A DNA stretch of 64,000 nucleotides. Origin: Acidobacteriota bacterium (lineage in GTDB: Bacteria > Acidobacteriota > UBA4820 > DSQY01). The translations under genes were made by a program, and so were the position numbers. Numbering within the stretch: position 1 is the first letter of the stretch; the number at the start of each line of letters is the position of its first letter. The notes under the pieces are model-generated. The model made no database searches. It saw only the letters and a list, made by a program, of their open reading frames with translations, and was not told where the DNA came from. The stretch is taken from assembly GCA_040752915.1 (NCBI GenBank), contig JBFMHB010000002.1:13967-77966 (forward strand). Direction: 5' to 3'. Below, piece after piece: positions 9,415-42,550 of the stretch.

Positions 9415-9448
9415 CGCCCCCTCCTTCAGGGTCCGAGGGAGGAGAACC

Positions 9449-10244: not shown

Positions 10245-12452
10245 TCAGGGGCACGTGCTCGTTGTGTCGATCAGGCTGTTTCCGCACAGCCCCGAAGCGC
10301 TCGTGCTCCGCTGGCTCTCCACTCCGCCGACGCGCTTGAGCCCCCAGGAACTCTCCATGGGGCCCGAATCGCCCACGATGATCCAGAAGGTGTTCCCCGA
10401 GGGCGGGGTCCAGGAGGAGCCGCTGGTGATGCCGCACACGGAGCCGGTCCAGCCATAGGTGGACACGCTCGAGAGGGGGCCGTAGTACAGGTTGTAGGAG
10501 GGGGCCGGACAGGTCGTGGAGTCGAAGGTCACCGTGATGTCCGACCCTGACTTGACCCCGCGCGCGGGCGAGGTGCCTCCCCGCCCGTCGGGCGCCGGGG
10601 CCACGGAGCAGGTCTGGATGGTCACGGCGTGCCCCGCCGAGGTGCCCGAGCACCCCGAGCCGTTGGTATAGGAGACCGTGTAGGTTCCGCTCTCCGTGGC
10701 CGTGTAGGCGGCGCTGTTCGTCCCCACGGGGTTCCCGTTTTTTCTCCACTGGTACGAGGACATCCCGCTTTCCGTGCTCAGAGCCACCGTGGTGGCCGGG
10801 CAGGTGTTGGTGGAGTCCCCCGTGATCGTGGGGGTGGCGGGCTGGTAGGCGTCGGTGCCCGACACCGTGGACGTGGACGCCTCCTCGCCGCAGGTGTTGA
10901 TGTACTTCACCGAATAATCGTAGGCCGTGTTGTTCGTGCCGCCCGTGTCCACCCAGGAGGTGGCGCCGTAGGCGATGTAGCCCGAGGCGTCGGTGGCGCC
11001 GCGGAAGACGCGATAGCCCCGATCGGGGCTGGAAAGGCCCTCGTCCCCCCAGGCCGTGGGAGCGGCCGCCCAGGTGATCCGGGCGCCGTCGTCGGCGCAG
11101 ATCCCGTTCTCGTCCGTGACGGACGGGGCGGACAATCCGGAGGGCACGTCGCAACAAGGCGTCGCGGAGCAGGATCCTCCGCTCTCCCAGGCCGCCACCT
11201 TAACGTCGTCCACCATCCAGTAATACCCGTAGTGGCCCAGGTACCGGAAGCGAACGCGGACGTCGGAGTGGCCCGCGGCCAGGTCGCTGAGGTCCAGGAC
11301 CACGGGAACGGACTCGCCGGGATCGGCTTCCGGCGGGAACCCCCCGGCGGGAGGATTCCCCACGCTCACGCGCCAGGTCTCCACCGTCTGCCACGTGGTT
11401 CCCCCGTCGGTGCTCACGTCCACGAACGCCGACTCCTCGTGGCCCGTTTGGAACGCCCAGAGAAAAGAACGGAAGGTCAGGTCCACGGAAACGGCGTCCG
11501 TGCAATCCAGGGACGGCGAGACCAGGCTGTCTTCCTGGATTCCCCCCTCCCCGTAGTGGTCCGAGTCCAGAATCTCCACGTACCCGCTCATGCCCTCGGG
11601 GAGGGGACGCTCGGCCGGATTGGCGGTGGTCCAGGTCTGGCCCGCGTCTCCACCGTCCTCGAGGCTCCAGCCCGTCGGGGGATCGTCTTCGGAGAAGTCC
11701 TCCTCGAGCAGGTACGCAGCCGGGGACCCCACCGGAATGACGAAGGTCTCCTGCCAGGACCCCTGTTCGCAAGTCATCGTCACCGTGAAGGACATGCGCG
11801 CGCCGCAGGGAACGTCTCGGCCGATGTCGACGGTGAACGAAGCGTCCTCCGGCTGGAAAAACAGGGTGGTATCGTAGGCCTCCACCGTGTCGAGCGAAAC
11901 GGAGGAGGGGGTGACGGTCACCCCGGACGTGGAGGTGGACACCGCGACCTGAGCGGCGGTGGCATCCGTTCCCCCCCGGTTGAGGATCCTCAAGGTCAGA
12001 TCAAGGGTCTCCCCCGGGCCGGCCAACCCGTCTCCGGGACTTGAATCGCAGGAGTCCATCCACCAATGGGAAGCGACCTCCAGCCGGGCGCAGTCCAGCG
12101 TGAACAGGTGGTACTGCCCCCCGTCGTCTTCCGTGGTGGTTCCATCCTGGTTGCTGGAAGTGACCGAGAAGAGGTACGTGTCGCAGGGCAAATCCGTGAG
12201 CGTGATGGAATGGGACGTGCCCGCTTCCTCTACTTCCACATAAGAGCCCAGGGCGCGGGTGGGACCGAAATCCACGCGGCTGTCGGCGGCCTCGTTGGTC
12301 GTCCAGGTCACCGTGGCCGTGGTATCCGTGATTTCGCTGACCTGCACGTCCGTGATGACCGGCCCCGCCCACAAGGCGGACGAAAGGGCCGCAATCCACA
12401 CCGCGACCGAGAAAAGCCCCGCCCGGGTTCCCCGTCTTTTTGCCCTACCCAT
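10245..12452 (-). CDS. Large secreted protein 'A' (~735 aa): signal peptide, Fn3-like repeats, MAM-like/choice-of-anchor-J-like domain (YWMVDDVKV), and the shared C-terminal Cys-bearing domain.
   Basis: Signal peptide MGRAKRRGTRAGLFSVAVWIAALSSALWAGP. TDVQVSEITDTTATVTWTTNEAADSRVDFG is an Fn3 module. The C-terminal domain ends ...GLCGNSLIDTTSTCP. Confidence 0.7.
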   Translation of the reverse strand: MGRAKRRGTRAGLFSVAVWIAALSSALWAGPVITDVQVSEITDTTATVTWTTNEAADSRVDFGPTRALGSYVEVEEAGTSHSITLTDLPCDTYLFSVTSSNQDGTTTEDDGGQYHLFTLDCARLEVASHWWMDSCDSSPGDGLAGPGETLDLTLRILNRGGTDATAAQVAVSTSTSGVTVTPSSVSLDTVEAYDTTLFFQPEDASFTVDIGRDVPCGARMSFTVTMTCEQGSWQETFVIPVGSPAAYLLEEDFSEDDPPTGWSLEDGGDAGQTWTTANPAERPLPEGMSGYVEILDSDHYGEGGIQEDSLVSPSLDCTDAVSVDLTFRSFLWAFQTGHEESAFVDVSTDGGTTWQTVETWRVSVGNPPAGGFPPEADPGESVPVVLDLSDLAAGHSDVRVRFRYLGHYGYYWMVDDVKVAAWESGGSCSATPCCDVPSGLSAPSVTDENGICADDGARITWAAAPTAWGDEGLSSPDRGYRVFRGATDASGYIAYGATSWVDTGGTNNTAYDYSVKYINTCGEEASTSTVSGTDAYQPATPTITGDSTNTCPATTVALSTESGMSSYQWRKNGNPVGTNSAAYTATESGTYTVSYTNGSGCSGTSAGHAVTIQTCSVAPAPDGRGGTSPARGVKSGSDITVTFDSTTCPAPSYNLYYGPLSSVSTYGWTGSVCGITSGSSWTPPSGNTFWIIVGDSGPMESSWGLKRVGGVESQRSTSASGLCGNSLIDTTSTCP

Positions 12453-12637
12453 GGACACCCCTCCCCCGCCCCGCCGGGGCGACTCGAAGGTGCTGCACGG
12501 GAACAAGATAGCCCCGGACGGGGCGGAGGGCTACTCGAAGGGACCTCGGGCTCGGCGGGCTCGCGTGAAATGTGCGTGGGCTCACGGACTTGCACGCGAC
12601 CAGAGCAGGCTCCGTGCCGGCCGGACGCCCAGGCGCC

Positions 12638-15535
12638 TCACGGACAGGCGGTTGCGGTGCTCTTGGCGGTGAAGCCGCACTGGTTGGAGGCGGCGGGGTG
12701 GCGCTCACTCCCCGCCGAGTCCCTTCCCCAGTGACTTTCCATGGCCTCCCCGTCGGTTCCCACGAGGACCCACCAGATGAAGGCCTCCCCCACGGGCACG
12801 GAGGGAGAGGTCCACGCATAGGTCCCCGAGGGCCCCATCCCGCAGACGGCGCCCGAAAGCGCACAGGCCGACAGACCGCTGGCCACGCCCCAGTAAAGGT
12901 TGTAGTCCGGGCTCGCGCAGGTGAAGACGTCCCACGCGATGTCCACCTGGCTTCCGTCCCCATTGGCTTTTGAGGCCCTCGCCGCCGTTCCGGTCACCCA
13001 CCGGCCGTCGGGCACCGGCTTGACCGCGGCAGTCCCCCCCGCGGCGGCGCACGGCTCCACGCTCTCCGCCTCGACGCGCACGTTGTCCACCATCCAGTAC
13101 CACTCGTAGCTCCCGTTGTAGTACCGGAAGCGCACCTGGGCGTCGGAGGCCCCCGCCGCGCGGCTCGTCAGGTCGAGCGTCTCGTGCTCCGGATTCGCCG
13201 TGCTCGCCCCCGTCCACCGGCCCACGTTCTGCCAGGCCCCCGACGTCCGGCTCGACCGGACGTCCACGTCGCACACCTCGCTCTCGTACCGGTAGAAGTA
13301 GTGGTCGAACTCCAGCGTCACCGACGTGGCCGCCGATAGGTCCAGCACCGGCGTGATCAACTGCTCGTCTTGTGTCGCCCCCGTTCCCGCCTCGTCGCTG
13401 TCCACGATGGCGAAGGGATCCGTGATGGGCGCCGTGGCGTTTCTCCCCCCGGGGTTCGACGTCGTCCACGTGGAGGCCGCGCCCCCTCCCGATCCGCCGT
13501 CCACCACCGTCCACGTCCCGGGGATCCCCGACCCGAAGTCCTCGTCCAGCGCCGTGAAACTCGAGTGGCTGCCGGTGGGGGTGCCGGAACGGACGAGGAG
13601 GTTCCCGTCCTCCTGACCGGTCCCGCCGTCCACGGCCCGAACCACGTAATGGTACGTTGTCCCAAGGGCCAGGCCCGCCGCGTCCCGGAAGGCCGTCGCC
13701 ACGATCCCCCTGGCGATGCGGGTCGAGGCATCGGGGACGAATCCCGCGGAGGTGGACCGGTACACGTTGTAGGTCACCGAACTTCCGCAATACGAGGCGG
13801 CCGCTTCCCAAGACAGGTCCAGGGAGCAGGTCGCCTCTCCAGGGTTCACCACGGAGGACAGGCCCGAAAAGGAGGGGGGCTCGGTGCAGGGCCCCGTGGT
13901 CACCGCTTCGGCGCAGTCGCTCGGGGCCGAAAGGCAGTGGCCGGTGGCGTCCAGGGCCTGGATCCGGTAGGCGTAGGGGACGCCTCCCGAGGCCCCTTCG
14001 TCCGTTAAGGCCGCGGAGGCCGTTTCGCCGAGAACCAGGGCCTCCTCCCCGGATGCGCACCCCCCCCTCGTCCGGAGGACCCGGTAGGTCAGGCCACCTC
14101 CCCCAGGGGTCCAGGCCACCTCGACGCGGTTCTCTCCGGCCGGCGTCGCCGAAACGCCGGTGGGAACGGCGGGCGGTCCGCACAGGGGGTCCGCCAGGTG
14201 GGCCAGGGTGGCCACGTAGGCCTTCACGGCCGAGTAGAAGAAGCCGGGCGATCCGCAGTTCGCCCGGGTGTCGTTGGACGTGTGGTAGTAGGGATAGTGG
14301 CCGGCGTGGCTGCAGTATCCCTCGTTGTCCGTGATCCCGCAGACGGCCGACCACCCTTTCTGCCAGAAGGGATAGTGGTCGCTGGCCGTCAGGCTCGCGC
14401 AGGAGAAGGCATCCACCGGACAGCCGGTGGCATACGCCGAAGCGCAGTCCGCAAACAGGAGTCCGAGCCACTGGGAAGACGCGTTGTAATTGAGGTCCAG
14501 GTTTTCCGCCGCGGGAGAGCCATCCCCCTGCCAGCCGATCATGTCCGCGTTGAGGACCGCCTGGATTTGCTCTCCGCGGGCCTGGGCGTCGTCGGCGTAC
14601 GCCGCGCTCCCGTACAGGCCCTGCTCCTCCCCCGTGCAGGCGATGAACTTGACGGTATTGGCGAAGGCGTAGGGCGCCATGGCCCGGGCCGCGGCGGTGA
14701 CGACGGCCGCACCGCTGGCGTTGTCGTCCGCCCCGGGGGCGGCCCCCGAGGAGGGCATGTCATCCAGGTGGCCGATCACGATGTAGACGCGTTCCGGATT
14801 CGTCCTCCCGGTAAGGGTCCCGATGACGTTCGGCGCGTAGCCCGCGCGGTAATCCTGGAGCGACGGGCTCAGGCCCCATTCGGCGAACTCGTCGAAGACG
14901 CCCTGGACCGCGGTCTGGCACCCGGAACTCAGGGAGTGCCGGGTGGTGTAGGTATTCGGGAACCGGCCGCCGATGACCGCGTCCCATGCGCCCGAAAGGG
15001 TGGAAGGGTCCAGGGAGTCCACGAGGGACTGGACGAGAGGCTTGGGCGTGACGGCCAGCGGCTCTCCCCGTCTCTGCCTTTCTGCGTACTCCGGCGGAGG
15101 CGGATCTGGAAGCGCAAGCGGGCGAAAATCCAGGATCTGGAAGAACCAGCGGGGAGACTGGACGCATTCCTCGGGGACATCCCCCTCGAAGCGGAGGAAC
15201 GCGAGATTCTCTTCGAACCGGAGGACTTCGCCGCACGCTCTCTGGAAATCGGGCGACCATCCATCCCTCAACCCCGCCACCGCGTAGGTGGCGCCCTCTT
15301 CCCGGTGATCCAGGATTTCGGCATCGTATCCGAGACGGCGGAGGGTGTCCTCCGGGCCCGCTCCGTCCGCCAGGGCCAGAAAGCCCGACTCGTACTCGTA
15401 AACCAGTTGGACTCCCGCGGAGAGCAGGAGGGCGCGGTCCTCCACGGTGCGCCGTTCGATGCGGAGGATCTCCGCGGCGGCCGTCCCCGGCGGTGCCCAC
15501 AGAATCAAGCCCAATGCCAGGGCCGGCCACTTCAT
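12638..15535 (-). CDS. Giant secreted M28-family aminopeptidase-like protein 'B' (965 aa): signal peptide, M28 zinc-peptidase domain, Fn3 repeats, MAM-like domain, shared C-terminal domain.
   Basis: M28 motifs VIGHLDDMP (His-Asp), DDNASGAAVV (Asp), ACTGEEQGLYGS (Glu-Glu) and VLNADMIG. Signal peptide MKWPALALGLILWAPPGTAAA. The C-terminal domain ends ...NQCGFTAKSTATACP. Confidence 0.8.
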   Translation of the reverse strand: MKWPALALGLILWAPPGTAAAEILRIERRTVEDRALLLSAGVQLVYEYESGFLALADGAGPEDTLRRLGYDAEILDHREEGATYAVAGLRDGWSPDFQRACGEVLRFEENLAFLRFEGDVPEECVQSPRWFFQILDFRPLALPDPPPPEYAERQRRGEPLAVTPKPLVQSLVDSLDPSTLSGAWDAVIGGRFPNTYTTRHSLSSGCQTAVQGVFDEFAEWGLSPSLQDYRAGYAPNVIGTLTGRTNPERVYIVIGHLDDMPSSGAAPGADDNASGAAVVTAAARAMAPYAFANTVKFIACTGEEQGLYGSAAYADDAQARGEQIQAVLNADMIGWQGDGSPAAENLDLNYNASSQWLGLLFADCASAYATGCPVDAFSCASLTASDHYPFWQKGWSAVCGITDNEGYCSHAGHYPYYHTSNDTRANCGSPGFFYSAVKAYVATLAHLADPLCGPPAVPTGVSATPAGENRVEVAWTPGGGGLTYRVLRTRGGCASGEEALVLGETASAALTDEGASGGVPYAYRIQALDATGHCLSAPSDCAEAVTTGPCTEPPSFSGLSSVVNPGEATCSLDLSWEAAASYCGSSVTYNVYRSTSAGFVPDASTRIARGIVATAFRDAAGLALGTTYHYVVRAVDGGTGQEDGNLLVRSGTPTGSHSSFTALDEDFGSGIPGTWTVVDGGSGGGAASTWTTSNPGGRNATAPITDPFAIVDSDEAGTGATQDEQLITPVLDLSAATSVTLEFDHYFYRYESEVCDVDVRSSRTSGAWQNVGRWTGASTANPEHETLDLTSRAAGASDAQVRFRYYNGSYEWYWMVDNVRVEAESVEPCAAAGGTAAVKPVPDGRWVTGTAARASKANGDGSQVDIAWDVFTCASPDYNLYWGVASGLSACALSGAVCGMGPSGTYAWTSPSVPVGEAFIWWVLVGTDGEAMESHWGRDSAGSERHPAASNQCGFTAKSTATACP
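13078..13556. repeat. Copy 1 (in gene B) of a ~480 bp near-identical nucleotide cassette encoding the MAM-like domain. Copy 2 lies in gene C at 15966-16442.
   Basis: Read directly: long runs such as gttgtccaccatccagtaccactcgtagctcccgttgtagtaccggaa...ctcgaccggacgtccacgtcgcacacctcgctctcgtaccggtagaagtagtggtc occur in both genes with only scattered mismatches. The encoded peptides are about 98% identical. Confidence 0.85.
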
Positions 15536-15572
15536 GTCCTCGCCCCTCCTATCCTGGATGCCCTCCCACCCC

Positions 15573-18500
15573 CTACGGGCAGGCGCCCGTGGGATCGATG
15601 TGGCGCGGGCCGGCGGATGCGCTTCCGGGGTGACCGTCCCCCCCGGGATTCCAGCCGGTGACGAGGTACCAGAGGACTCCTCCCGGGGCCGCCGCGGGAT
15701 CGTCTGAAAGACCCGTGGCTTCTGGCAATCCGAGGTTGTCCAGGCGTTTGCAGGAATCCAGGCCGCCGTCGAGCAGGGCCGAGAGGTCCGCGAGGACGCC
15801 TCGGTAGAGGTGGTAGTGATAGGCTTCTGTGTTGGAGCCCCATTCCAGGGTCGAATCGTCGGTCCACTTCATGTGGGTGGCCGGAGTGCCCGCGGTTTCG
15901 CCGGGGGCCGCGGCGGGCACGCAGGCGCTCATGGCGCACCCTCCGGGAGCGGTGTAGGTGACCCGAACGTTGTCCACCATCCAGTACCACTCGTAGCTCC
16001 CGTTGTAGTACCGGAACCGCACCTGCGCGTCGGAGGCCCCCGCCGCGCGGCTCGTCAGGTCCAGGGTCTCGTGCTCCGGATTCGCCGTGCTCGCCCCCGT
16101 CCACCGGCCCACGTTCTGCCAGGCCCCCGACGTCCGGCTCGACCGGACGTCCACGTCGCACACCTCGCTCTCGTACCGGTAGAAGTAGTGGTCAAACTCC
16201 AGCGTCACCGTCGTGGCCGCCGATAGGTCCAGCACCGGCGTGATCAACTGCTCGTCTTGTGTCACCCCCCAGCCCGCCTCGTCGCTGTCCACGATGGCGA
16301 AGGGATCCGTGATGGGCGCCGTGGCGTTTCTCCCCCCGGGGTTCGACGTCGTCCACGTGGAGGCCGCGCCCCCTCCAGATCCGCCGTCCACCACCGTCCA
16401 CGTCCCGGGGATCCCCGACCCGAAGTCCTCGTCCAGCGCCGTTCCGGACCCTGGTACGGGCTGGCCCAGCATCACGGAGAAGGTGTCGTCCCAGGCGCCC
16501 TGGTTCGAGACCAGGTGCAGGGAGAAAGTCGCCGACGTACCGCAGGAGACCGAGGGGTCCGCGAAGACCCGGAAGTGGGGCGGATCGGAGGCGCGCTCCT
16601 CCCCGGAGGGAATGTCGGAATAGGATGCCGAATCGACCAGCACGAGGATGCCCGGCGTCGAGGTGGAGAGGCTCCCCAGGACCGCCGTGGCGCCGGAGGT
16701 TCCCACGTTTTCCGCCGTCACGGCAAGGATGGCCTCCTCCCCCGCGTCCCAGACGCCGTCTCCGCCTCCTCCCCCCGAGCCGGTGCAGGCGTCCGTCAGG
16801 AGGTGGGAGGCGTAGGCCAGTTCGGCCCCACAGGACTGGGCGGGGAAGGTGAAGCTCAGGCTCCAGGAATCGATGGTTCCCGTGTCCGAACCTGCGTCGT
16901 CCACGACCTTCAGGCCCCAGTTCCCCGCCGCCACCTGGCCGTCGAAGGCCGACAGGGAGCCCTCGGGACGGAAGGTGCCTGTGAAGGGAGCCGTCCCCCC
17001 CGTGATGGACGAGGAGGCCTCGTCGTCCAGGACCGTCTCCGTGAAGTTCTCGCCCGAGCCGCCGTTGTCGGTGGAGAGTTCGACCTGGGTGCCCTGGGGG
17101 CTCACGAGATAGATGTCCAGATCGCCGTCGTAGGTGTGGGTGATGGAGTGGATGGTCACGTTCACGTCCACGATGACCTTGTCGTCGGGCACGGACAGGA
17201 CCGAGGTCACCCCTGCCGGGTTCGCGTCGGGAATGGCCAGCCCCGGGGTCTCGGTGCGCGTGTAGGTGGGCGCGCTCGTGACGCCCGTCGTAAAGGCGTA
17301 GTAGGCGCCCCCGTTGTCGTCGGAAGAGGAGTTGCCGGCGGGGTCCGCCGAATCCACGGCGTAGTAGTAGCCCCGGCAGGCTTCCAGGGCGCTCAGCGTC
17401 ACCGAGTGAGCCGTCCCGTACGCCGCGTCGGACCCCGTGGAGGAAGGCGGGACGGATGTGCCGTACCGCACGCGCGAGTCGGCGGGCTCGTCCGTGGTCC
17501 ATGTGACGGTCACGTTTTGGCCGCTCACGGAAGCCGAGACGTCGGAGATGACCGGGGCCCGGCAGTCCCCGGAGGCCGTTCCGTCCACGTCGACGTTCGG
17601 GGTCCCGCAGTAGTCCGCGTCCACGTAGCGCACGGTCAGGGTGGCTCCGTCGGTCATGCGGACCTCGGAGGGACCGGGTGTGGACGAATCCGTGGTGGCG
17701 ACGGTGCCCGTGTAGACAGCCGACCCCGGTGGAGTATTGGACAGGGTGAAGCTCTTGTGGCTTCCGTCGGCGGTGGACCAGGCTTCCACCGCAAGGGTGG
17801 CGGGCGAGCCGGGGACGTTCGAATCCACTACGGTCACCCCCACGGAGTCCGTGCACCGGACGACCGCCTTGGACAGGGACACGGATCCCGCGCAGGGCAT
17901 GGGGGTCACCGTCGCGCAGGCGCTCATGGCGCTCACGCAGGAATCGCTTGCGGTCGCGGCCTGCACGCGGTAGAAGTAGGTGATCCCGTTGACAACGGTC
18001 GTGTCCGTGTAGGCGAGGGAGGGGGCGTTCACCGTGGCCACCTTGGTGAACCCCGCGTCGCAGTTCATCTCGTTCCGGTAGATGAAATAGCGCGTCGCGT
18101 TCGGCCCGCCGGAGGTCCAGGTCAGGAGCGCCGAATCGCTCCCCGCGGCCACCGAAGCCGTGGGAACGGTCAGGGAAGGACAGGAGGTCTGGTTCTGGTT
18201 GGTGGCGTCGCCCGCGGACCCGCAGGCGATTCCGTGGCGGGCGAGGCTGGAGTAGATCGCCGCCGCGTGGGGCGTCCCGTTGGCCGTCCCGTCCCCGTCG
18301 TCGTCGAAGGCCCTCATGGTCGAATACAGGCTCCCCCCGTTGCAGCCGTTGGAGGTCGGGGGCGTGCAGGTGTACATGTTGCCCAGAGTGGGCATGCTCG
18401 AATAGAAGAGGCGGTCCGCGAGCTGCCAGGCCGTGGGAAGGTCCAGGCCGCACAGGGCCGGCAGATCCCGGTTCACGAAGTCCCACAGGGCCTGGGTGGA

Positions 18501-20234: not shown

Positions 20235-20481
20235 GAGTCCCCTCCCCGCGAGGCTGCAGGTTCAGCCAGAGAGGGCCCACACGCTATGCGGAACGAGAAT
20301 CCCACCCAGAGGCCCCCGCCCCTCGTAACCCGACAGCTCCGTATAGGATTCTGGTGCCTCCTGGCGAAGATGTCAAGTTCTTGAAACAATAGAGGTTACT
20401 CCGTTCTCAGCATCCTGTCCGGGCAGGAGGGACGCCCCCGCACGCCTGTCCCCCCCATGAAGACCGATGCGGCAAAGCCGA

Positions 20482-20507
20482 AAGGGCGGCCCCGAAAGGC
20501 CGCCCTT
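20482..20507 (-). terminator. Terminator-like hairpin downstream of gene D (perfect 10 bp stem aagggcggcc / ggccgccctt, loop ccgaaa).
   Basis: The inverted repeat was read directly. It lies 53 bp below the D stop on the minus strand. The T-tract is weak. Confidence 0.5.
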
Positions 20508-20559
20508 GCTTCCCGATTTCCGCGAACCGAGGCCCGCCTCGTTCCGCCTCCGCAACTTC

Positions 20560-24018: not shown

Positions 24019-24123
24019 GACGCCCTCCCACTTGCAGACTATTTGCGGAAGGGCCCCTGAACGTCACGGGGGATTCTCTGGCTGGGGATCGCTCCCAACG
24101 GGGGTGTGGACGCGAAGAAGAAA

Positions 24124-24149
24124 GAGGCGGGCCAAGGCCCGCCCCTTTT
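24124..24149. terminator. Bidirectional terminator-like hairpin between genes D and E (stem ggcgggcc / ggcccgcc, loop aa), flanked by T-rich runs on both strands.
   Basis: gaagaagaaagaggcgggccaaggcccgcccctttt. It lies 26-50 bp downstream of the gene E stop on the minus strand. Confidence 0.55.
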
Positions 24150-24174
24150 CTCCGGTGTTGGACCGACCAGAGCC

Positions 24175-27100
24175 CTACGGGCAGGTGCTCACCGTGCTCT
24201 TAGCGGTGAAGCCGCACTGATTGGAGGCGGCAGGGTGGCGCTCGTTCCCGGCCGAGTCCCTGCCCCATGAGCTTTCCATCACGGAGGCGTCCGAACCGAC
24301 GAGGACCCACCAGACGAAGTCCTCCCCCTCCGGGATGGCCGGGGCTGACCAGCTGTAGCTTCCCGTCGGTCCCATGCCGCAGGAGCTTCCCGAAAGGGAG
24401 TAAGAGGAAAGGCCTCCTTCCGTTCCCCAGTAGACGTTGTAGGCGGGGCTTACGCAGGTGGAGACGTCCCAAGTAAGGTCCACCGTCCTCCCGTCCTGAG
24501 ACGTCTTGGCGGCCATCATCGGTGTCCCCGTGACCCACCTCCCGTCGGGGACGGGCTTGACCGACGTGGTGCTCCCGGATGTGGAGCAGGGGGTGTTTGT
24601 CTGCACGTGCGACACGACGATTTCGTCCACGTACCAGCCCTCGTAGGTCAGGGATCCATCCGTCGAGAAATTCCATCGCACGAGGATTGTCTGGCCGTTG
24701 TAGGCCGAGAGCGTCACGCTGTACTGCGTCCAGGTGAGGTTCGTGCCCGTATAGCAGGGTAGATTGTTGTCGTATCCGCAGGCGTCGCTCGTGTTCCGAA
24801 AGGTGTCTGGATAGGCCGGCGCCGGCGTCAGTTGGGTCCAACTGGAGCCTCCGTCGCTGGACACCTCCACAACGCCGCCGTCGTAACGGCTTTCGATCTC
24901 ATAGGCCGTCCAATACGTCATGCGGGAAAGCTGACCCGCCGTGAGGGTCAGGGGAGGGGTCCGGAGCGCGCCGCAAGAGCTGTCCGCGTACCCAGAGTGG
25001 TACGCGCTGGCACCTCCGTGGACCCGCGCCGCGGTGGTGTGCCAGGTTCCGGTGAGAGTCATGGCCGGATCGCCCACCTCCGCCCCCGCCTGCCAGGTGG
25101 AGTCTCCGATGCTCCCCACGGGAACCGCGGAACGCCGAACGAGATTCGAATCCTCGACCCCATTGGCGTCATCTACGGCCCTCACGACGTAGTAGTAGGT
25201 CGTCCCGCTTACGAGGCCCATGGCATCATGAAAAGACGTCCCCAGGACCCCTGTCGCAATCATGCTCCCAGTCCCCGGAATGAAGCCCGAGTCGGTGGAT
25301 CGGTAGATGTTGAAGGTCACCTCCCCACCGCACTGGGCGGACGCCGCGCTCCATTGGAGATCCAGGGAACAGGGAGACGCCGAGCCGGAGGTAACGGCGG
25401 ACAGGCCTGCAAACATGGGGGCTAGGGTGCATACCCCCTCGGCCGTTTCCGAAGCGCAAGAACTCTGGGCCGACTGGCAACGGCCCGTCGCGTCCACACC
25501 CACCACGTGATAAGCGTACGAGGTTCCTCCCGAAACCTCAGTGTCCGTGTAGGAGGTTGACGTGAGCCCTTCGGCCAACAGGGTCCAGGCCAGCGGCGCG
25601 GGCGAGCAGGTGGAGCCCTGTGCCCGATACAGGCTGTACGTGGCGGCCGCTGGGGAACCTCCCGCCCAGGACAGGTCGATTCGGTTGTCTCCGTTGGCGA
25701 TGGCCTGGAGCGATGAGGGCGCTCCCGGGTCCTCGCATCCGCACTCGTCGAAGCGAAAGGAGGCCACCCGCGTGGCGCTGCTCCCGGACTCCATGTACTC
25801 GGAAAAGAACCAAAACGTGCACTCATCCACGGGATCAACGCCTATGCCCGCGTAGTCACCCCATCTATCGTACGTCGTCTGGGAGGAGACCCCGTCGATG
25901 ATCCGGTGTTCGTAGTAGGGCATGGTTCCCAGGGGGTCCGTGCTGAGCCGACCCGCATAATAGAGAGACGGGTAATAAGGGGTGCTGCTTCCCGTTCGGG
26001 TGTAACCCACGGCGATGTTCCCACTGCCATCCATGGCGGCGCTCGCGACGGACCGATGCACCCCCGGTTCGCCTCCGAGGGTCCCTTCCTGATACAGGTA
26101 CCAGGAGGATCCCTCCTTCCGGAGCTCGAACCACCTCACCGCCGCGTGATCCGTCCCGTCCACGTCCACCGCAAAGGCTCCAACCAGCGTTTCGTGCGAG
26201 CCGAAGTTTCTGTATTGGAGAGGGAAGTGGAGCGGCTCCCGAATGGGGTCGATGGCCTGCGTGGTTCCCGGCTGGGGCATACAGTCCCAGTTTCCCGACG
26301 TTCCGCAAAGGGTGTGATCCCAGTCCGTCATCTGGATGCTGGGTAATTGAGTGACGAAGGAATTGGCCGGTGTGGCCCAGTCCACGAAGACCTCGCGCAT
26401 TTCCATCAGGTCGCATCCCGCGCACGTACCTCCGTGGATCTCGGTGTCCACGGGGCGCAAGAAGAGGCCCCTGGCCCCGGAAGGCGGGGGATTAGGCCCC
26501 TCGTGGCCAGCGGGAAGGAAAAGCTGGAAGCCCCACCCCGCAAGGTCCGGAAGCGAGAACTTCTGCATCGTCGCCGGTTGGCCGGTCAGCATCTTGGAGC
26601 GTTCCATCGCAAAAACGTCGCGCGTCGTGGACGTGCCCGCGTTTACGCCCACAAGGTAAGCTCCGTCGTCGAAAGCCCCGTCCCCATCCTCGTCCAGAGG
26701 CCAGACACCGTACTTGGGGTAATCCGGCACGCTCGAATAACCGGCGTTGAAGGTGTAGGCGTACCATGCGCCCGTCGGGTCCGGGGTCTGGGACACGTAA
26801 ACGCAGAAGTAACTTCCCGTTCCGGAGAATTCACTGATGACCCACCGGTCGGCCAATTGGTCGTAAAGGACGATGGGGTCGCAGTACCCGTTGTTGCAGG
26901 GGGAGGTCGAGGAGAGGCTCTCCATGGTAAAAGAAGTGTCGAATACTCCGTTCTTGTCGAAGACCCATACCGTTGAGTTTGCCGCGTTCACGCCTTGAAC
27001 GACGTGATCCGGCCCGACGTCCCCCGTGCAGTCCGGGGGATAGGATCCGTAGTCCGCCCCCTCCACGTTGACGATCGGTGTGTCAAAGGCACTTGGCGCC

Positions 27101-27378
27101 GGGATGGGAGCCTGGCGCTGCCATTCCACAAGGCGGTCTTCGACGGGGGGGACCACGACCTCCGGCCCAAGAAAGCCCTGCTCGTCTCTCCGCTTCATCT
27201 CCAGTCCGTACAGACCTTCGACCGGAGCCAGGGGCGGAAGGTCCCTGACGCGGGGGCTGAGGGTGGGAAAAACCGGGCCCACCACCTGGGTTGCCCCTGC
27301 AATCCGCTCCTGCGCCCAGCCCGGCAAGACCGGTGAAACGAAGAGTATAACGAACGTCAAGATTGCCAGGCGCCTCAT
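24175..27378 (-). CDS. Giant secreted protein 'E' (1067 aa): signal peptide, ~550 aa N-terminal domain of unassigned family, Fn3 repeats, MAM-like domain (YEGWYVDEIVVS), and a shared C-terminal domain nearly identical to that of protein B.
   Basis: Signal peptide MRRLAILTFVILFVSPVLPGWAQE. C-terminal VKPVPDGRWVTGT...NQCGFTAKSTVSTCP. No HExxH motif was seen. Confidence 0.7.
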   Translation of the reverse strand: MRRLAILTFVILFVSPVLPGWAQERIAGATQVVGPVFPTLSPRVRDLPPLAPVEGLYGLEMKRRDEQGFLGPEVVVPPVEDRLVEWQRQAPIPAPSAFDTPIVNVEGADYGSYPPDCTGDVGPDHVVQGVNAANSTVWVFDKNGVFDTSFTMESLSSTSPCNNGYCDPIVLYDQLADRWVISEFSGTGSYFCVYVSQTPDPTGAWYAYTFNAGYSSVPDYPKYGVWPLDEDGDGAFDDGAYLVGVNAGTSTTRDVFAMERSKMLTGQPATMQKFSLPDLAGWGFQLFLPAGHEGPNPPPSGARGLFLRPVDTEIHGGTCAGCDLMEMREVFVDWATPANSFVTQLPSIQMTDWDHTLCGTSGNWDCMPQPGTTQAIDPIREPLHFPLQYRNFGSHETLVGAFAVDVDGTDHAAVRWFELRKEGSSWYLYQEGTLGGEPGVHRSVASAAMDGSGNIAVGYTRTGSSTPYYPSLYYAGRLSTDPLGTMPYYEHRIIDGVSSQTTYDRWGDYAGIGVDPVDECTFWFFSEYMESGSSATRVASFRFDECGCEDPGAPSSLQAIANGDNRIDLSWAGGSPAAATYSLYRAQGSTCSPAPLAWTLLAEGLTSTSYTDTEVSGGTSYAYHVVGVDATGRCQSAQSSCASETAEGVCTLAPMFAGLSAVTSGSASPCSLDLQWSAASAQCGGEVTFNIYRSTDSGFIPGTGSMIATGVLGTSFHDAMGLVSGTTYYYVVRAVDDANGVEDSNLVRRSAVPVGSIGDSTWQAGAEVGDPAMTLTGTWHTTAARVHGGASAYHSGYADSSCGALRTPPLTLTAGQLSRMTYWTAYEIESRYDGGVVEVSSDGGSSWTQLTPAPAYPDTFRNTSDACGYDNNLPCYTGTNLTWTQYSVTLSAYNGQTILVRWNFSTDGSLTYEGWYVDEIVVSHVQTNTPCSTSGSTTSVKPVPDGRWVTGTPMMAAKTSQDGRTVDLTWDVSTCVSPAYNVYWGTEGGLSSYSLSGSSCGMGPTGSYSWSAPAIPEGEDFVWWVLVGSDASVMESSWGRDSAGNERHPAASNQCGFTAKSTVSTCP

Positions 27379-27399
27379 AGGATCCTCCCCTTCCCCACT

Positions 27400-29748
27400 T
27401 TACAGGTTTCGACTCTCCAGTAACAGCCGAGAGGCACTTCGAACGTACTTGTTTTCCGACCGGGCCAAACGGGAAAGCGCCTGACCGTCCAGGGTCTCGA
27501 GGAGAGCTTCCGCCCAGGCGAGGACGTCCACTTCCGCATACTGACGCCGGATAGTCTCCGCTCCAGAAACCGCCTTGCCCTGGAAGGCCTCCATTTTCCC
27601 AGGTCTACGCCCCCACAGAGTGCGGTCCAGAAAAACACGATCCTCGGGGCCCGAGACACGCAGAGTCAGGACCTGCACCCAGGCGCGTGCCCGGGGGGGA
27701 GGGTAGGGCGTGGCCCCATCCCTGGAATACCTAACGTCCTGCCAGCGGCTTCTGTAGGAGAGATCCAATCGTCCCAGGACCTCCTCCAAGAGTGGATCGG
27801 CCAACATGCGCTGGAGGGGTACGAGCCTCGACACCGACTCGCCTTCTTTTCGGAGTTCCAGGATTCTCCTTGCCGCATCGTCGGGAGAGACCGGTCCCGA
27901 GGGATCGCCCATCCACTTTCGGAGGAGGCCCGTATCCTCGATTCGGGAGAGTGCGGCGGCCCGAACGGCGGGGTCGCCATCAGTCCTGGCGGTGTCCTCA
28001 AGGACCTCCGGGTCCGAGCATTCAAGCACACCTTCCATGCGTCGTTCCGGATCAGCCTGCCGGTGCAGCCACCCTCTCAGTCCGCCGATCTCGTCCAACC
28101 GCCTGATGGCCGCGACACGAACATCCACATCCGGGTCCATCGAGGCGATCCGGCCCAGCCGATCCAGGTTCCTGATCCGGTCGGCCGCTGCCCGCCGCAC
28201 GACCCAGTCCGCGTCAGATTCTGAGACCCGGCCGATGACCTTCTCGTCGTTGATTCTCCGCAAGGCCGCCAGCCGGACGTGCGGGCTGGCATCCTGGAAC
28301 AGTACCAGCGCAAGAGATTCCTCCGAAACCAGCCGGCTCGCAGCAATGGCGCGCACATTCGGAGACGGATCGGTGGAGGCGGCCGTCCGAAAGAGACTCT
28401 GGTCATCCGAGACTTGGAGGAGGGCGGCGGAACGGACCTCCGGGGACGGGTCGTTGCGAGCGGCCGTTGCGAGGACCGCCTCTTCCCGGATGCGCCGGAT
28501 GGCAGAAGCCCTTACCCGGGGGCTGGCATCTCTCCGAAAAACCTCCACGAGGGACTTGGCGTCGGAGATTCGTGAGACGGCCCGCGCCCGGACCTCCGGT
28601 TCGGAGTCCGAGTAGGCGATTTCCAGGAGAAGCTCCGGCAGATCCAACTGCCCCACGGCCGCTGCCCGAACCCTTCCGTCCGCGTCGGATCGGGCCAAAT
28701 GGGCCCGTGTCTCCTGAGAACGAAGGCCCTCCGCCGCCGCTGCTCGAACCAGGGGATCTTCGTCCGCGACGGCCACGGAACTGAGGAAAACCTGGTCGTC
28801 AATCCGGCGGACGGCTTCCCTTCGAACGACGGCGCTCGCATCCTTCCGGACCAGGACCTTCAGAACCTCCTCCGTCGGAAGCAGCTCCACGGCCTGACGT
28901 CGAGTCTCCGGATCGGGGTGGTCCGCGACCACGTGATCCAAGGCGCCCAATTCTCGAAGCCGCCGAAGAGCGAGGGCCTTCGTCTCCCGATCTTGGCTGC
29001 GGTCCAGGAGCACCTTGAGGTGGTCGGGGTTTGACAACCTGGCGATTGCGAGCATTTTGGGCCGTGATTCGACTTCTTGGAGGACGGCGAGGCGGAGAAA
29101 GGAAGGATTTGAAAGGCCTTTGACGGCCGCCTGTCGAACCTCCACCTCAGGATCCGAGACCGCCGCGTGAAAGCGCGCCTCCTCCGAAAGGAGCCTTTCC
29201 ACGGCGTTTCGGCGAACCACCCAATCGGGATCTCCAAGGGCCGTCTGTTCCAAAAGGGCCTGATCCTGGACCCGGTCAATCGCTTCCGCCCTGAGGAACC
29301 AATCGCCCTCCCGAAGAATGTCCTCCAGAAAGACCGGATCGTGGAGGCGCCGAATGGCTTCCATCCTCGCCCCTTTGCTCGATGCGCATCGGGCCACCCG
29401 CCAGAGATCTTCCTGATCCTTGAGTTGCAAGACGGCGGCTACAGCCTCCATTTCGTCCTGGCTTTGAACGGCAACCGACAAGAGGCCCGAGGGGGAGCCC
29501 TCGGGGATCACCTCTCCCCCGAGGCCATTGGCGTTCGATCCGACCACGGGCGGCATCACCTTCTCGCAAGGTTCAGAAGCCTGAGAGGCCGCTGTCCACC
29601 CAAGCATCAGTCCTGTGCCCCATAGGACCATCAGGGGTAACGTGGAGAACACGATCCCGATCCTCCCACCCCACTGAGCACCCCGGTTCACCATGCCTCC
29701 GCCCGCCTTCCCCAACACCCGCCCCCCTCCCTCTGGGCGACCTCCCAC
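27400..29748 (-). CDS. HEAT-repeat protein (about 14 tandem PBS-lyase-type HEAT-like repeats) with an N-terminal signal peptide or TM segment. It is embedded in the protease array 22 bp upstream of gene E. The start is ambiguous: 29748 or 29694.
   Basis: Recurring ~31 aa units: DPDWVVRRNAVERL, DPEVEVRQAAVKGL, EPEVRARAVSRI, SPRVRASAIRRI, DVDVRVAAIRRL and others. N-terminal hydrophobic stretch FSTLPLMVLWGTGLMLGWTAASQA. Confidence 0.7.
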   Translation of the reverse strand: MGGRPEGGGRVLGKAGGGMVNRGAQWGGRIGIVFSTLPLMVLWGTGLMLGWTAASQASEPCEKVMPPVVGSNANGLGGEVIPEGSPSGLLSVAVQSQDEMEAVAAVLQLKDQEDLWRVARCASSKGARMEAIRRLHDPVFLEDILREGDWFLRAEAIDRVQDQALLEQTALGDPDWVVRRNAVERLLSEEARFHAAVSDPEVEVRQAAVKGLSNPSFLRLAVLQEVESRPKMLAIARLSNPDHLKVLLDRSQDRETKALALRRLRELGALDHVVADHPDPETRRQAVELLPTEEVLKVLVRKDASAVVRREAVRRIDDQVFLSSVAVADEDPLVRAAAAEGLRSQETRAHLARSDADGRVRAAAVGQLDLPELLLEIAYSDSEPEVRARAVSRISDAKSLVEVFRRDASPRVRASAIRRIREEAVLATAARNDPSPEVRSAALLQVSDDQSLFRTAASTDPSPNVRAIAASRLVSEESLALVLFQDASPHVRLAALRRINDEKVIGRVSESDADWVVRRAAADRIRNLDRLGRIASMDPDVDVRVAAIRRLDEIGGLRGWLHRQADPERRMEGVLECSDPEVLEDTARTDGDPAVRAAALSRIEDTGLLRKWMGDPSGPVSPDDAARRILELRKEGESVSRLVPLQRMLADPLLEEVLGRLDLSYRSRWQDVRYSRDGATPYPPPRARAWVQVLTLRVSGPEDRVFLDRTLWGRRPGKMEAFQGKAVSGAETIRRQYAEVDVLAWAEALLETLDGQALSRLARSENKYVRSASRLLLESRNL

Positions 29749-29923
29749 GCGCCTGGCCGCCGGCGGCTCGAGCAGATTGCAGCAATCCGCGTCAAAAGCT
29801 TTATTCTAGCAGCCCCCAAGGTATGGGGCTTCGCTCTCCGACTCCTCGTCGCCTCTCTTGGCGAGATCAAACAGGTGGGGCGGGCCGGAGCCCGCCCCGT
29901 TTGAATCCGATGCCGGGCTTCTC

Positions 29924-32900
29924 CTACTTGTCGCAGTACGCATCTGCCGTGCGGGCCGTGCCGGAGGAGTTGTTCCCCAGGCTCCCCTCCGTTCCGAAGC
30001 CGTTGTCCGCCGTCACCAGGAAGTACAGCACCTGCGTGCTTCCCGTGATCCCGCTTTCCAGATCCACCAGGGACATCCTCAGCATTCCCGGCTCCGCGTC
30101 CGGCGTCCATCCCGCCCACGCGCAGTCCCGCTTTCCGTACTGCGGGTCCGCCACCTGGAACGCCGACGTGTTGGGGCTGTTGGACACGTAGACCTGATAA
30201 TGGCTCGCCGTCACGTCCTCGAAGACGATGTCCGTCGCGCTCCCGTTCTTGTACGCCTTCAGCGGGTGGTCCGCGCTTCCCGACACCTCCCCCGCCATGC
30301 AGGGCGAAATCGTCACCGCGTGGCCCCCCGACGTGCCCGCACACCCCGAGGCGTTCGTGTAAGACACGGTGTAGGTGCCCGACGCGGTGGCCGTATGCGT
30401 CGCGCTGTCCGTGCCCACGGGGCTCCCGTTCAGGTACCACTGGTACCCCGTCATCCCCGATTCGGTGCTGAGATTCACGGTCGAAGCCGGGCAGGTGTTG
30501 GACGAAGCTCCTGAAATGGCCGGCGCGGGCGTGGCGTCCTCGTCCGAAGCCGCGGACCCGCCCGTCTCGGCCTCCATCCCGCACGCGTTCTTGTACCGCA
30601 CGCTGTAGGTGTAGCTCACGCCCGGCAAAGCCGTCGCGTCCGTCACCGACGTCGTCCCGTAGGCCACCTCCGCCTGAAGGACGCTCCCGTCCCGTAGCAC
30701 GTCGTAGGTCCTCGTCCCCGACACGTCGCCCCACGACCCCGGGTCCGCCGGCCAGCTCACCGCAATGCCGTCGTTCGCGCAGGCGCTCGCGTCCACGGCC
30801 GTCACGCTCCCCACCGACGAAGGCGCCGCGCACGACGTGCACGTGCCAACGGTTGTAACGCTCACTTCCACGTCGTCGATAAACCACCCGAGGGATGCCG
30901 TATTGCAGTCGACTATTACGCAGAAGGCGATCCAGACGGTTTTTCCGGCCGCCCCCCCGACATTGCCAGAAATGGCGTTGCAAGCAGCATCCAAGTCCAG
31001 GACCGTATTGACCAGCGTGCTTTGTGTGTCTGTCCAAACAGGCAGTCCAGCCGCATAATCAGGAGGACAGCCGTTCGTTCGAATTGTGTTGGTATAGGTG
31101 TTCTGCAAGATGGCGGCGGAGGGAACCAATGTGTAATTCGAAGCGTCTGTTGAAACGGCCAGCAGTGCTCCGTCATACCGATTCTCAAAGCTCCAGCGAT
31201 GCCAGAAACTCATCCTGGCGGACGTTCCATCCGCGGGCACAGCAATCCCAGAAGCGCCGTTTGGCTGTGCAAAGGTGAAGTGTGAAACCACAGTCGTCAA
31301 GCCCGTGCAGGTGGAGGCTCCGTACCGGAATACGTGAGTCCCACTGCTCGAAGGCGAGCAGGACTGTATCCCACGCCAATCGGTCAACGTTCCGGTACCG
31401 CTAAAATACCCTGTTGTCCAGTCGCTCAGCCCCGAGCCGGATTCAAAATCGTTGAAATACAAGATCGAAGTACTCGCCGTTCCCGGCGCGGCGCCGCGCT
31501 CGGTCGCGTTCGCGTCCTCCAGCCCGTTGACCGTCTCCACCGCCCGCACCACGTAGTAGTACGTCGTCCCGCTCTGGACGCTCGCATCCGTCCACGTCGT
31601 ACCCGTCAAGCCGCTCTCGATCTGGTTCGACGGCCCCGGCGTGAAGCCGCTCGCCGTGTCCCGGTACACGTTGTAGGTCACGCCCCCTCCGCACGAGGAG
31701 GCCGCCGCGCTCCAGGCCAATTGCAGGGAGCACGTGGCCCCCGACACCGCCGTCACGGAAGTCAAACCCGAAAAGGTCGGCGGATTGATGCACGGCGCAG
31801 CGGGCGTCGTGGCCTCCGCGCAGGCGCTGTAGGCCGACTCGCAGACCCCGGACACCGCCGTCACCACGTAGGCGTACGTCGTGCTCCCGCCCGCCGTTCC
31901 GTCGCTGTAGGTGGTGGCGGCCACGGGCCCGCCCGTCGTCAGCTTCGTGTAGGCCCCCTGGGGGCACGTTCCCGTGGCTCGGTACACGTGGTACGCGCTC
32001 GCCCCGCCCACGGGGCCCCAGCTCAGGTCCACGTTGTTGTAGGCCGTAGCCGTGGCCGAGAGCCCCCCCGGCGCCCCCGGCGTCCCGTTCGCGTCCGTCC
32101 CCGCCGTCGCGTTCGACCAGGGCCCCGTGCAGGAGGCGCTCCGTCCCCGCGCCGCATACGTGTGCGAGGCCGTATCCCCCGGCGAGTACACGTAGGGACT
32201 CGTCACGCCCGAGAGCGTCGTCGTCCCGTCCACCAGCAGGTCGTACGCCGTCGCCCCCGCCACCGCGTGCCAGGTGACCTGCACTCCGCTCAGCGCGCAT
32301 GCGCTCACGTCCCCCACCAGCGGCGCCGCCGGCGCCAGGAGGCCGTTCACGTCCGTCCCCGCCGTCGCGCCGGACCACGCTCCCGTGCAGGAAACCGTCC
32401 GGGCCCGCACCGCATAGGTGTGCGAATTGGAGTTCCCCGGCTCGTAGAAATACGGGCTCGTCACACCCGAAATCGTCGTGGCCCCGTCGATCAGGAGATC
32501 GTAGGCCGTCGCTCCCGAGACCGGGCCCCAGGACACGTTCACTCCCGTCAAGGCGCAGGCGTCCGCGTCCGTCACCGCGGGCGCCGAGGGCGTCCCCGGC
32601 GTCCCATTCGCATCCGCGTAGCTTTGGGCGCCGGAATCCGTCGTGCACGTCTCCACCACCGCCTGGACCACGTAGCTGTGGGAGGACGTGTCCCCGGGGT
32701 TGTACAGCGCGCCGGAGGCATACCCCGCCACCGCCACCGACCCGTCTCGCAGCAGGTTGTGGCTCGTGGCTCCGGAACCCGCCGTGTACGACACCCGGAT
32801 CCCGCTCTGCGCGCACCCCGACTCGTCGGCGAATCCCGTGATCTCCGGCGCGCCGGGCGGCGTGCATGAAGTGCCGGTGGTGCACGTGCCGTATCCCGTA

Positions 32901-42541: not shown

Positions 42542-42550
42542 GGGAACTCC

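Follow-up and report, generated by a model that had tools for sequence, protein, structure and literature searches.

The array and its six C-terminal tails

The window, by which we mean the whole 64-kb stretch of DNA that was analysed, comes from an uncultured Acidobacteriota bacterium. It contains an array of six co-oriented genes on the minus strand (A to F, 10245..36490) and, inside the array, one HEAT-repeat gene (27400-29748). The six genes encode mosaic multidomain proteins, all with Sec-type, signal-peptide-like N-termini. Gene A occupies 10245-12506. Gene B (12638-15535) encodes an M28 peptidase with choice_anch_J, gene C (15573-20234) a P-domain with choice_anch_J, gene D (20560-24018) an M6 metallopeptidase, gene E (24175-27378) an InhA-like MAM protein, and gene F (29924-36490) a protein of 2188 aa with multiple Fn3 domains and a MAM-like domain. 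The array is flanked on one side by sirohaem-synthase genes on the plus strand (7708-10084) and on the other by the gene of a secreted BNR propeller (36845-39676), followed by gcvP (39732-42899). The BNR propeller scored 16 bits against PorZ, a non-significant similarity given the cut-off of 260. A sequence-only reading of this DNA had placed a shared C-terminal tail on every array protein. This was the case for the six giants A to F, but the HEAT-repeat protein and the adjacent BNR propeller carried no tail. Some other Sec-signal proteins within the window were also tail-less.

Homology of the six tails, as that reading proposed, was upheld by their alignment, by cross-group HMMs, and by hhalign. 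Pairwise identity was 40-66% within A/B/E, 57% between D and F, and 22-29% between groups. HMMs built without one group still recovered the other groups at 12-22 bits, compared with 8-9 bits for the best decoy among 2,800 shuffled sequences; only for the C model, built from two sequences, did the best decoy (15.6 bits) come close to the real cross-group matches. In hhalign, P was about 1e-4 for A/B/E against D/F and 4e-5 for C against D/F. When the entire window was translated in six frames and scanned with the tail HMM, only these six C-termini were matched.

The HMM-based domain was about 115-132 aa long in all six proteins, and the boundaries drawn earlier proved too short for each of them. 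Three subtypes were distinguished, all on the minus strand. Type 1, ending in '...TCP', comprises tail A (10245..10619 with the stop codon included, residues about 630-753, from HMM envelopes and the Cys map), tail B (12638..13033, residues about 834-965, the sequence used for structure modelling), and tail E (24175..24579, residues about 934-1067). Type 2, ending in '...YCDx', comprises tail D (20560..20958, '...SYCDGMP', residues about 1021-1152) and tail F (29924..30319, '...AYCDK', residues about 2058-2188), in agreement with the second subtype recognised before. Tail C (15573..15923) ends in '...GACP', lacks the type-1 extension, and forms the third subtype; a close copy of it was found in metagenome protein P0003. 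The motifs quoted in the earlier reading and the Gly/Ser-rich end were present in the tails, with a Cys 1-4 residues from the stop, and the last 30 residues of B and E were indeed near-identical.

The proteins A to F also have large C-terminal cassettes in common beyond the tail alone. The domain directly before the tail in B, C, and E is choice-of-anchor J, and the MAM-like domain just upstream of the tail in E and F matched NCBIfam models of rhombosortase- or myxosortase-dependent M36 peptidases. These matches indicate that the C-terminal slot holding the tail is the slot of targeting signals in other phyla.

Fold, cysteines and chain end

Bacterial secreted hydrolases and giant surface proteins contain tandem arrays of Fn3 domains, and in bacterial hydrolases such domains often act as mere spacers. 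We found all six tails to be derived Fn3 beta-sandwiches, about 120-130 residues in length. The fold was a seven-stranded Fn3-type beta-sandwich, and its structural neighbours were Fn3-type domains. Strands B to F were conventional ('VDLxW', 'YNLY', and 'LYFLVTADNG' or 'FIWWVIVGTDG'), and retained hallmark motifs of bacterial Fn3 domains (Pfam fn3, PF00041; E-set/Fn3 superfamily): Trp/Phe in strand B, 'YNLY' in strand C, and a 'YYFVVTA'-like motif in strand F. A generic Fn3 HMM matched the B and E tails directly (i-E 7.5e-5 and 1.8e-5), and hhalign aligned the tail profile with tandem Fn3 repeats from strand B to the FG loop (97% probability, E 1.1e-10).

None of the six tails reached the Pfam fn3 (PF00041) gathering threshold or had any Pfam match at E ≤ 10, and NCBIfam models gave none at that limit either. 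The Pfam fn3 matches in the carrier proteins, where ordinary Fn3 domains are numerous, lay upstream of the tail. Foldseek found no close solved structure (best E 0.02, TM ≤ 0.44), and a PDB sequence search with the tail gave partial matches only (E ≥ 0.03). The database check suggested earlier found no tail match to PPC, CBM, or T9SS CTD models in Pfam or NCBIfam. A PPC pre-peptidase C-terminal domain or a CBM was rejected on the lack of a Pfam match at E ≤ 10 and on the Fn3-type structural neighbours.

The tail differs from an ordinary Fn3 domain in that about 50 of 132 residues lie outside the Fn3 core. After strand F, a Gly/Ser-rich extension, '(T/M)E(G/S)SxGxDSxGxxR...C', with two or four invariant Cys, takes the place of the usual G-strand region. 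Conservation peaked from strand F through the C-terminus, and the non-core extension 'ERHPAASGQCGFTAKST' was nearly invariant although the sequences share only 51-72% identity overall. C65 and C120 (B-tail numbering) were invariant across 74 sequences. This pair corresponds to residues 691/741 in A, 898/953 in B, 1495/1552 in C, 1087/1148 in D, 1000/1055 in E, and 2123/2186 in F; a second pair was present in A (666/752), B (873/964), and E (975/1066). Type 1 thus had four Cys columns at 0.96-1.0 occupancy and type 2 had two at 0.98-1.0. The second Cys expected 80-100 residues upstream of the terminal one was found only in A, B, and E, whereas family-wide the conserved partner lies 50-63 residues upstream. 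The invariant Cys pair probably forms a disulfide that pins the Gly/Ser-rich extension back onto the sandwich. Among 102 family members, 95 had the stop codon 1-2 residues past the last Cys. These results indicate that the tail is a new, previously unannotated Fn3 subfamily, probably pinned by its Cys, that is strictly C-terminal.

Distribution of the tail and known sorting systems

Thermoanaerobaculia and their Acidobacteriota relatives occur in large numbers, and most have not been cultured. Protein degradation by suites of secreted peptidases has been proposed for them (PMC8528874). In this study, 1.84 billion representatives were searched exhaustively with the tail profile, which gave 2,039 matches. 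Of the best 156 representatives, 86 had the complete tail as their extreme C-terminus, with '...TCP' or '...YCx[RK]' endings, and the remaining matches were tandem Fn3 repeat proteins (Pfam fn3 E 1e-27 to 1e-48). At E ≤ 1e-10 there were 450 representatives, many of them generic Fn3 repeat proteins. The named hosts were mostly Thermoanaerobaculia MAGs (Acidobacteriota), and the tail was also found in some other uncultured bacteria. The position was terminal in 86 of 87 strong matches, the sole 'internal' one being a 37-residue low-complexity read-through, and no internal or tandem copy was seen among about 100 members. Such strict terminal placement fits a true secretion signal and docking equally well.

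Most full-length members had signal-peptide-like N-termini, and their carrier domains included S8, M6/MAM, M28, M64, Kelch, NosD/beta-helix, LVIVD, and metallophosphatase. Several paralogues occurred per genome, often in tandem, with the subtypes coexisting within one locus. In other Acidobacteriota MAGs, tail-bearing genes also occupied the chromosomal site of the array, in sets that varied among MAGs. Among orthologues, conservation of the tail did not exceed that of the protein body, the two diverging at similar rates. Proteins closely homologous to peptidase D (M6; 59-65% identity) stop right after the MAM-like domain, which indicates that these enzymes can dispense with the tail. C-terminal to the same M6 body we found a tail of type 2, one resembling type 1, another beta-sandwich end devoid of Cys, a dockerin, or nothing. 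These results indicate that the tail is an accessory domain, swappable and strictly C-terminal, on Sec-exported multidomain hydrolases and adhesin-like proteins. Several of these proteins are 'hypothetical' at NCBI, and a tail that Pfam and NCBIfam do not recognise leaves a gap in their annotation. The tail HMM can be used to catalogue this part of the secretome and for phylogenetic profiling toward a partner.

We compared the tail with known sorting and anchoring systems. Helix-type signals occupy the same slot that the tail fills in B, C, and E, directly after the choice-of-anchor J or MAM-like domain. They consist of a short motif, a hydrophobic helix, and a basic tail, whereas the tail is a folded domain of 120-130 aa with no signature motif. 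As noted from the letters alone, the six sequences contain neither a hydrophobic helix nor a basic tail. The exclusion of PEP-CTERM, LPXTG, MYXO-CTERM, GlyGly-CTERM, and PGF-CTERM also stood, since no NCBIfam sorting-signal model matched, no hydrophobic stretch was present, and the chain ends 1-4 residues after a Cys. The tail is therefore not a sorting signal of the membrane-anchor type.

The T9SS CTDs of Bacteroidota (type A, TIGR04183/PF18962; type B, TIGR04131) can be compared with the tail only as an analogy. Tail and CTD alike form beta-sandwiches of about 80-130 aa at the extreme C-terminus of diverse Sec-exported cargo, and both occur in multiple copies per genome and in more than one subtype. 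However, the tail hosts are Acidobacteriota MAGs, and the conserved Cys-terminal ending has no CTD counterpart. The T9SS CTD had been set aside before, and the six tails gave no match to PF18962, TIGR04183, or TIGR04131 at E ≤ 10. No SprA, PorV, PorU, or PorK-N genes were detected in the 64-kb window or in flanks of up to 10 kb on related contigs. Dockerins share the terminal slot on modular secreted hydrolases, and distant M6 homologues of D carry one there (PF00404), but the dockerin is an unrelated, EF-hand-like Ca-binding module. We know of no cohesin-like partner for the tail.

Possible roles of the tail

Terminal position, Sec signal peptides, and varied cargo would suit a targeting or docking role. 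We propose that the derived, Cys-locked Fn3 tail is a handle, common to these proteins, for non-covalent docking or targeting; we hold this reading at about even chances. The protein would leave via Sec and lose its signal peptide, and the tail would then fold and become oxidised in the periplasm. The disulfide-locked extension, the best-conserved part of the domain, would form a rigid surface at the Fn3 loop end. This surface may serve as the shared handle that gathers different enzymes at the same partner, which could be a component of the cell envelope or a substrate polymer that they share. Against such a handle speak the tail-less M6 homologues, the similar conservation of tail and body among orthologues, and the frequent use of Fn3 domains as spacers in bacterial hydrolases. 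A strictly terminal module common to many exoenzymes gives a concrete handle on their targeting to, or retention at, the cell, and the isolated tail could be expressed for binding assays and disulfide mapping.

The tail may instead be a true secretion or sorting domain analogous to the T9SS CTD, read by a dedicated outer-membrane translocon or a sortase-like peptidase and possibly removed or used for attachment. The restriction to the extreme C-terminus with a stop 1-2 residues past the last Cys, a beta-sandwich of CTD-like size, and diverse Sec-dependent cargo are all consistent with this, as are the multiple, often tandem paralogues whose subtypes occur together in one locus. The two or three tail subtypes would then have their counterpart in the CTD types A and B, and the tail directly follows choice-of-anchor J/MAM modules whose relatives elsewhere bear rhombosortase or myxosortase signals. 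We nevertheless consider it unlikely. Models of the T9SS CTD and other sorting signals were unmatched even at E ≤ 10, the named hosts are Acidobacteriota MAGs and not Bacteroidota, and no partner or machinery gene was conserved beside the tails across 29 loci, the HEAT protein being a neighbour in close relatives only. Furthermore, the tail is absent from close M6 homologues and from other Sec-signal proteins in the window, no cleavage site is evident, and the family is small, with many generic Fn3 repeat proteins among its 450 representatives at E ≤ 1e-10. Still less probable is a more specific version, in which the tail would be the recognition domain of an undescribed sorting or surface-attachment pathway in Thermoanaerobaculia-type Acidobacteriota. 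It would then be a folded, disulfide-locked signal in '...TCP' and '...YCx[RK]' classes with a T9SS-CTD-like role, its near-terminal Cys and fixed end being part of recognition or processing.

A mere structural end-cap or spacer, that is, a disulfide-stabilised terminal Fn3 domain with no specific partner, would add modestly to the Fn3 clan. Its conservation would stem from folding constraints and from descent via domain shuffling among paralogues. The tail is an Fn3 domain on carriers rich in ordinary Fn3 domains, the six mosaics share large C-terminal cassettes beyond it, it is dispensable in homologues, and tail and body diverge at similar rates, all of which agrees with a spacer. However, a spacer needs no terminal position, yet in about 100 members no tail was internal or tandem, and the chain end is fixed 1-2 residues after the Cys. 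Unrelated carriers bear the same tail, and conservation is highest in the non-core extension 'ERHPAASGQCGFTAKST'. We regard a spacer, too, as improbable.

Finally, the '...TCP' tails, whose four invariant Cys have occupancies of 0.96-1.0, could use these residues to ligate a metal, for example as Zn(Cys)4, and the tail would then be a structural or redox module that depends on metal. This appears highly improbable, as type 2 and the C subtype have one invariant pair only and the His/Cys-rich motif typical of metal sites is absent. In addition, the signal peptides indicate an extracytoplasmic tail, and paired Cys in that location usually form disulfides.

Related C-terminal tails in the six array proteins

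Seven co-oriented minus-strand genes at positions 10245-36490 of the window (GC about 67%) encoded six large proteins (A-F) and one HEAT-repeat protein. Exact protein look-ups assigned the window to a MAG that carries the NCBI label Acidobacteriota, and a JGI metagenome contig also contains it. Protein A comprised 753 aa from its first TTG; the NCBI start is an internal ATG that gives 735 aa. B (965 aa) contained an M28 peptidase and a choice-of-anchor J domain, C (1553 aa) a proprotein-convertase P-domain and choice-of-anchor J, D (1152 aa) an M6 metallopeptidase, E (1067 aa) an InhA-like MAM domain and choice-of-anchor J, and F (2188 aa) an InhA-like MAM domain. Ordinary Fn3 domains were found in several of the six. 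As read from the translations, all six began with a Sec-type signal peptide, in which positively charged residues at the start were followed by a hydrophobic core and a cleavage region of small residues.

The sequence-only reading had proposed that all six proteins end in a related domain. The final 118-132 residues of A-F could be aligned and formed three groups, A/B/E (type 1), D/F (type 2), and C alone. Identity was 40-66% within A/B/E and 57% between D and F, but only 22-29% between groups, and homology was therefore tested explicitly. An HMM was built for each group together with its metagenomic relatives and was run against the other groups, with 2,800 shuffled decoys as the control. The one-group HMMs detected the other groups at 12-22 bits, compared with 8-9 bits for the best shuffled decoy, apart from the C model, the weak link, which was built from two sequences (best decoy, 15.6 bits; best real cross-group match, 17.4 bits). 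Profile-profile comparison gave P values of about 1e-4 for A/B/E against D/F and 4e-5 for C against D/F. The shuffle controls ruled out chance similarity, as did the alignment of the whole family. When the tail HMM was run over all stop-to-stop frames of the window, only these six C-termini were matched. These results, together with the alignment of the tails, support the proposed homology of the six.

The motifs, Gly/Ser-rich end, and near-terminal Cys described from the sequence were all present. The tails were found at the C-termini where they had been placed, but the HMM-based boundaries were longer than those first assigned, running from 10245 to 10619 in A, 12638-13033 in B, 15573-15923 in C, 20560-20958 in D, 24175-24579 in E, and 29924-30319 in F.

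The array proteins were mosaics of one another. Whole C-terminal halves were common to B and E, the Ig-like region preceding the tail to A and F, and the N-terminal 800 residues to C and F. In the neighboring genes B (12638-15535) and C (15573-20234), the MAM-like/choice-of-anchor J domain of B (residues 659-890) was 77% identical to that of C (residues 1263-1486), although B and C are otherwise dissimilar and bear tails of different subtypes. The identity suggests that a recent domain exchange or gene conversion took place within the array.

Fold and extension of the tail

No match to the isolated tails was obtained in Pfam or NCBIfam at E<=10. PPC, CBM, T9SS CTD, and helix-type sorting-signal families as currently modelled were thereby rejected, in agreement with the earlier view that the tail resembles neither T9SS CTDs nor signals of the PEP-CTERM or LPXTG class. 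A PDB sequence search with the tail gave only marginal partial matches (E of at least 0.03), and no description of the tail, or of a sorting system in the lineage, was found in the literature.

When 1.84 billion cluster representatives were searched exhaustively with the tail profile, there were 2,039 matches at E<=1e-3 (450 at E<=1e-10), and the best 156 of the 2,039 fell into two classes. In the first class, 86 of these 156 proteins carried one full-length match each at the extreme C-terminus. The longest had about 2,700 aa and the shortest <100 aa, the short ones being mostly fragments of genes on short contigs. Their ends read '...CGFTAKSTATTCP' in type 1 and '...RTADSYCx[RK]' in type 2. 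The sole non-terminal strong match was followed by a 37-residue low-complexity read-through. The chain stopped 1-2 residues past the last Cys in 95 of 102 tail-bearing proteins and within 4 residues in 99 of them. The second class consisted of giant proteins, each matched in part at 10-43 places. The matched regions were ordinary Fn3 repeats in tandem, with the pattern 'sYNLYws...GTTYYFVVTAvn..GES'; these proteins matched Pfam fn3 at E values of 1e-27 to 1e-48.

Since the second class consisted of tandem Fn3 repeats, the tail was suspected to be a modified Fn3 domain. Comparison of the 74-sequence tail alignment with genuine Fn3 repeats using hhalign gave a probability of 97% and an E value of 1.1e-10 over 76 columns that began at strand B and ended in the FG loop. 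The B and E tails were also matched directly by a generic Fn3 HMM. AlphaFold2 with the 74 sequences produced a model with a pLDDT of 92.5 and a pTM of 0.86, in which the strand order was as expected for a beta-sandwich; this model superseded an unusable one made with 14 sequences (pLDDT 55.7). On this fold, 'D(L/I)x(W/F)(D/E)' corresponds to strand B, '(Y/H)Y(N/H/Q)(L/V)Y' to strand C, and 'FIWWVLVGTDG' or 'VLYFLVTADNG' to strand F.

Past strand F, the canonical G strand 'GES..S....atP' was replaced by the extension '(T/M)E(G/S)SxGxDSxGxxR', and the region from strand F to the C-terminus was the best-conserved part of the domain. 'ERHPAAS' and 'TAKST' were invariant across type-1 tails that were only 51-72% identical overall. 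The invariant columns of the 74-sequence alignment were C65, G104, and C120 (numbered along the B tail). Type 1 had about 12 additional residues ending in C131-P, matched by a further Cys (C40) located in the B-C loop. Cys occupancy was 0.96-1.0 in four columns of type 1 and 0.98-1.0 in two columns of type 2. The invariant pair was located at residues 691/741 of A, 898/953 of B, 1495/1552 of C, 1087/1148 of D, 1000/1055 of E, and 2123/2186 of F, and the second pair at 666/752 of A, 873/964 of B, and 975/1066 of E. As the Cys residues come in even counts, are co-conserved, and are carried by exported proteins, one or two putative disulfides probably staple the extension to the sandwich.

We conclude that the tail forms a genuine subfamily of the Fn3 superfamily, one not annotated before. 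It is a strictly C-terminal module, probably held by disulfides, of multidomain enzymes that Thermoanaerobaculia-type Acidobacteriota export through Sec. As a form of the Fn3 domain type it is new, and it would gain importance only with the discovery of a dedicated recognition pathway.

Possible roles in docking, sorting, or capping

We favor a reading in which the tail is a non-covalent docking or targeting handle, and give it about an even chance. The tail was terminal in every case and never occurred in repeats, the chain end was fixed relative to the last Cys, and the conserved residues lay in the extension outside the core. The same module was borne by unrelated enzymes, with carrier domains including Peptidase_S8 (7 of 39 scanned), InhA-like MAM, M64, Kelch propellers, metallophosphatases, NosD/beta-helix, and LVIVD, and most full-length members started with a signal peptide. 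In B, C, and E, the tail directly followed the choice-of-anchor J/MAM domain, and distant homologues of D bore a dockerin where D has the tail. The MAM-like region of E and F matched NCBIfam models of rhombosortase- or myxosortase-dependent M36 peptidases, so that in other phyla this slot is taken by recognized sorting signals; F also had a weak, separate N-terminal match to a T9SS-dependent M36 model. These features were counted for targeting or docking. Of the two main rival readings, that of an inert structural cap appears improbable.

A true sorting or secretion signal, one candidate role in the sequence-only reading, seems similarly doubtful. The tail resembled neither T9SS CTD models nor any helix-type signal, and no secretion machinery was encoded in the window, which outside the array held housekeeping genes. 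No conserved partner gene was found beside the tails, where only housekeeping flanks recurred besides the HEAT-repeat gene, itself kept only in the closest relatives (loci L002, L004, and L005 on related contigs). About 20 homologues of D (59-65% identity) stopped directly after the MAM-like domain without a tail, and others ended in a different, Cys-less beta-sandwich. Among orthologues, the tail was no better conserved than the body.

Hosts, genomic site, and tail-less neighbors

Thermoanaerobaculia have been described as encoding suites of secreted peptidases (PMC8528874). When one genome per GTDB species was scanned with the type-1 core alignment, 15 loci were detected, 14 of them in Acidobacteriota or Thermoanaerobaculia MAGs and one in a MAG labelled Kiritimatiellae. 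The latter, a type-1 tail on a 7.1-kb contig (L017, JAQULY010000296.1), reflects either mis-binning or horizontal transfer, since the 14 other genome matches were all Acidobacteriota. The Thermoanaerobaculia label was also attached to homologues of D and to one type-2 carrier. Type-2 tails were also found on 55% GC contigs and on one 33% GC contig, and type 2 therefore extends beyond MAGs of 60-70% GC.

The array lies between sirohaem-synthase genes (7708-10084) and gcvP of the glycine-cleavage cluster (39732-44205). Tail-bearing genes, which were frequently in tandem, occupied the same site in many MAGs and varied in number and kind, with one to several different genes in other Acidobacteriota MAGs (L001/L010, L006, L009, L011, L012, L013, and L016). 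In its behavior the site resembles a hot-spot at which genes for secreted enzymes are gained, lost, and shuffled. On the 33% GC contig (L019, Logan ERR14790952_419), the gene of a type-2 tail protein and a gcvT-gcvH-gcvP cluster lay about 6 kb apart, which echoes the gcv linkage in the 67% GC window.

Several secreted proteins of the window had no tail. The HEAT-repeat protein (27400-29748, minus strand, 782 aa), which had a signal-peptide-like N-terminus and no NCBIfam match, was encoded between E and F; its gene is upstream of E in transcription, with its stop 21 nt from the E start. A secreted BNR/sortilin-like beta-propeller (36845-39676, minus strand) was encoded next to the array, separating it from gcvP, and had a 59%-identical homologue at L014. 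Its score against the T9SS PorZ model was non-significant (16 bits, cut-off 260), and the likeness is most likely a generic propeller resemblance. Three minus-strand ORFs with Sec signals (53119-54006, 54070-55710, and 55769-58048; 295, 546, and 759 aa) also lacked the tail and had no Pfam match. This stretch was lower in GC (60-62%), and the C-terminus of the 546-aa protein matched the 'choice-of-anchor Z repeating domain' below threshold.

In a syntenic MAG contig shared by L001 and L010 (ENA ERZ25039500 contig_16535), a tail-bearing S8 peptidase gene at 2698-6581 of L001 was split into short called genes, probably by an assembly frameshift error or as a pseudogene. Such breakage explains some of the tail 'proteins' in databases, those of just 130-230 aa.
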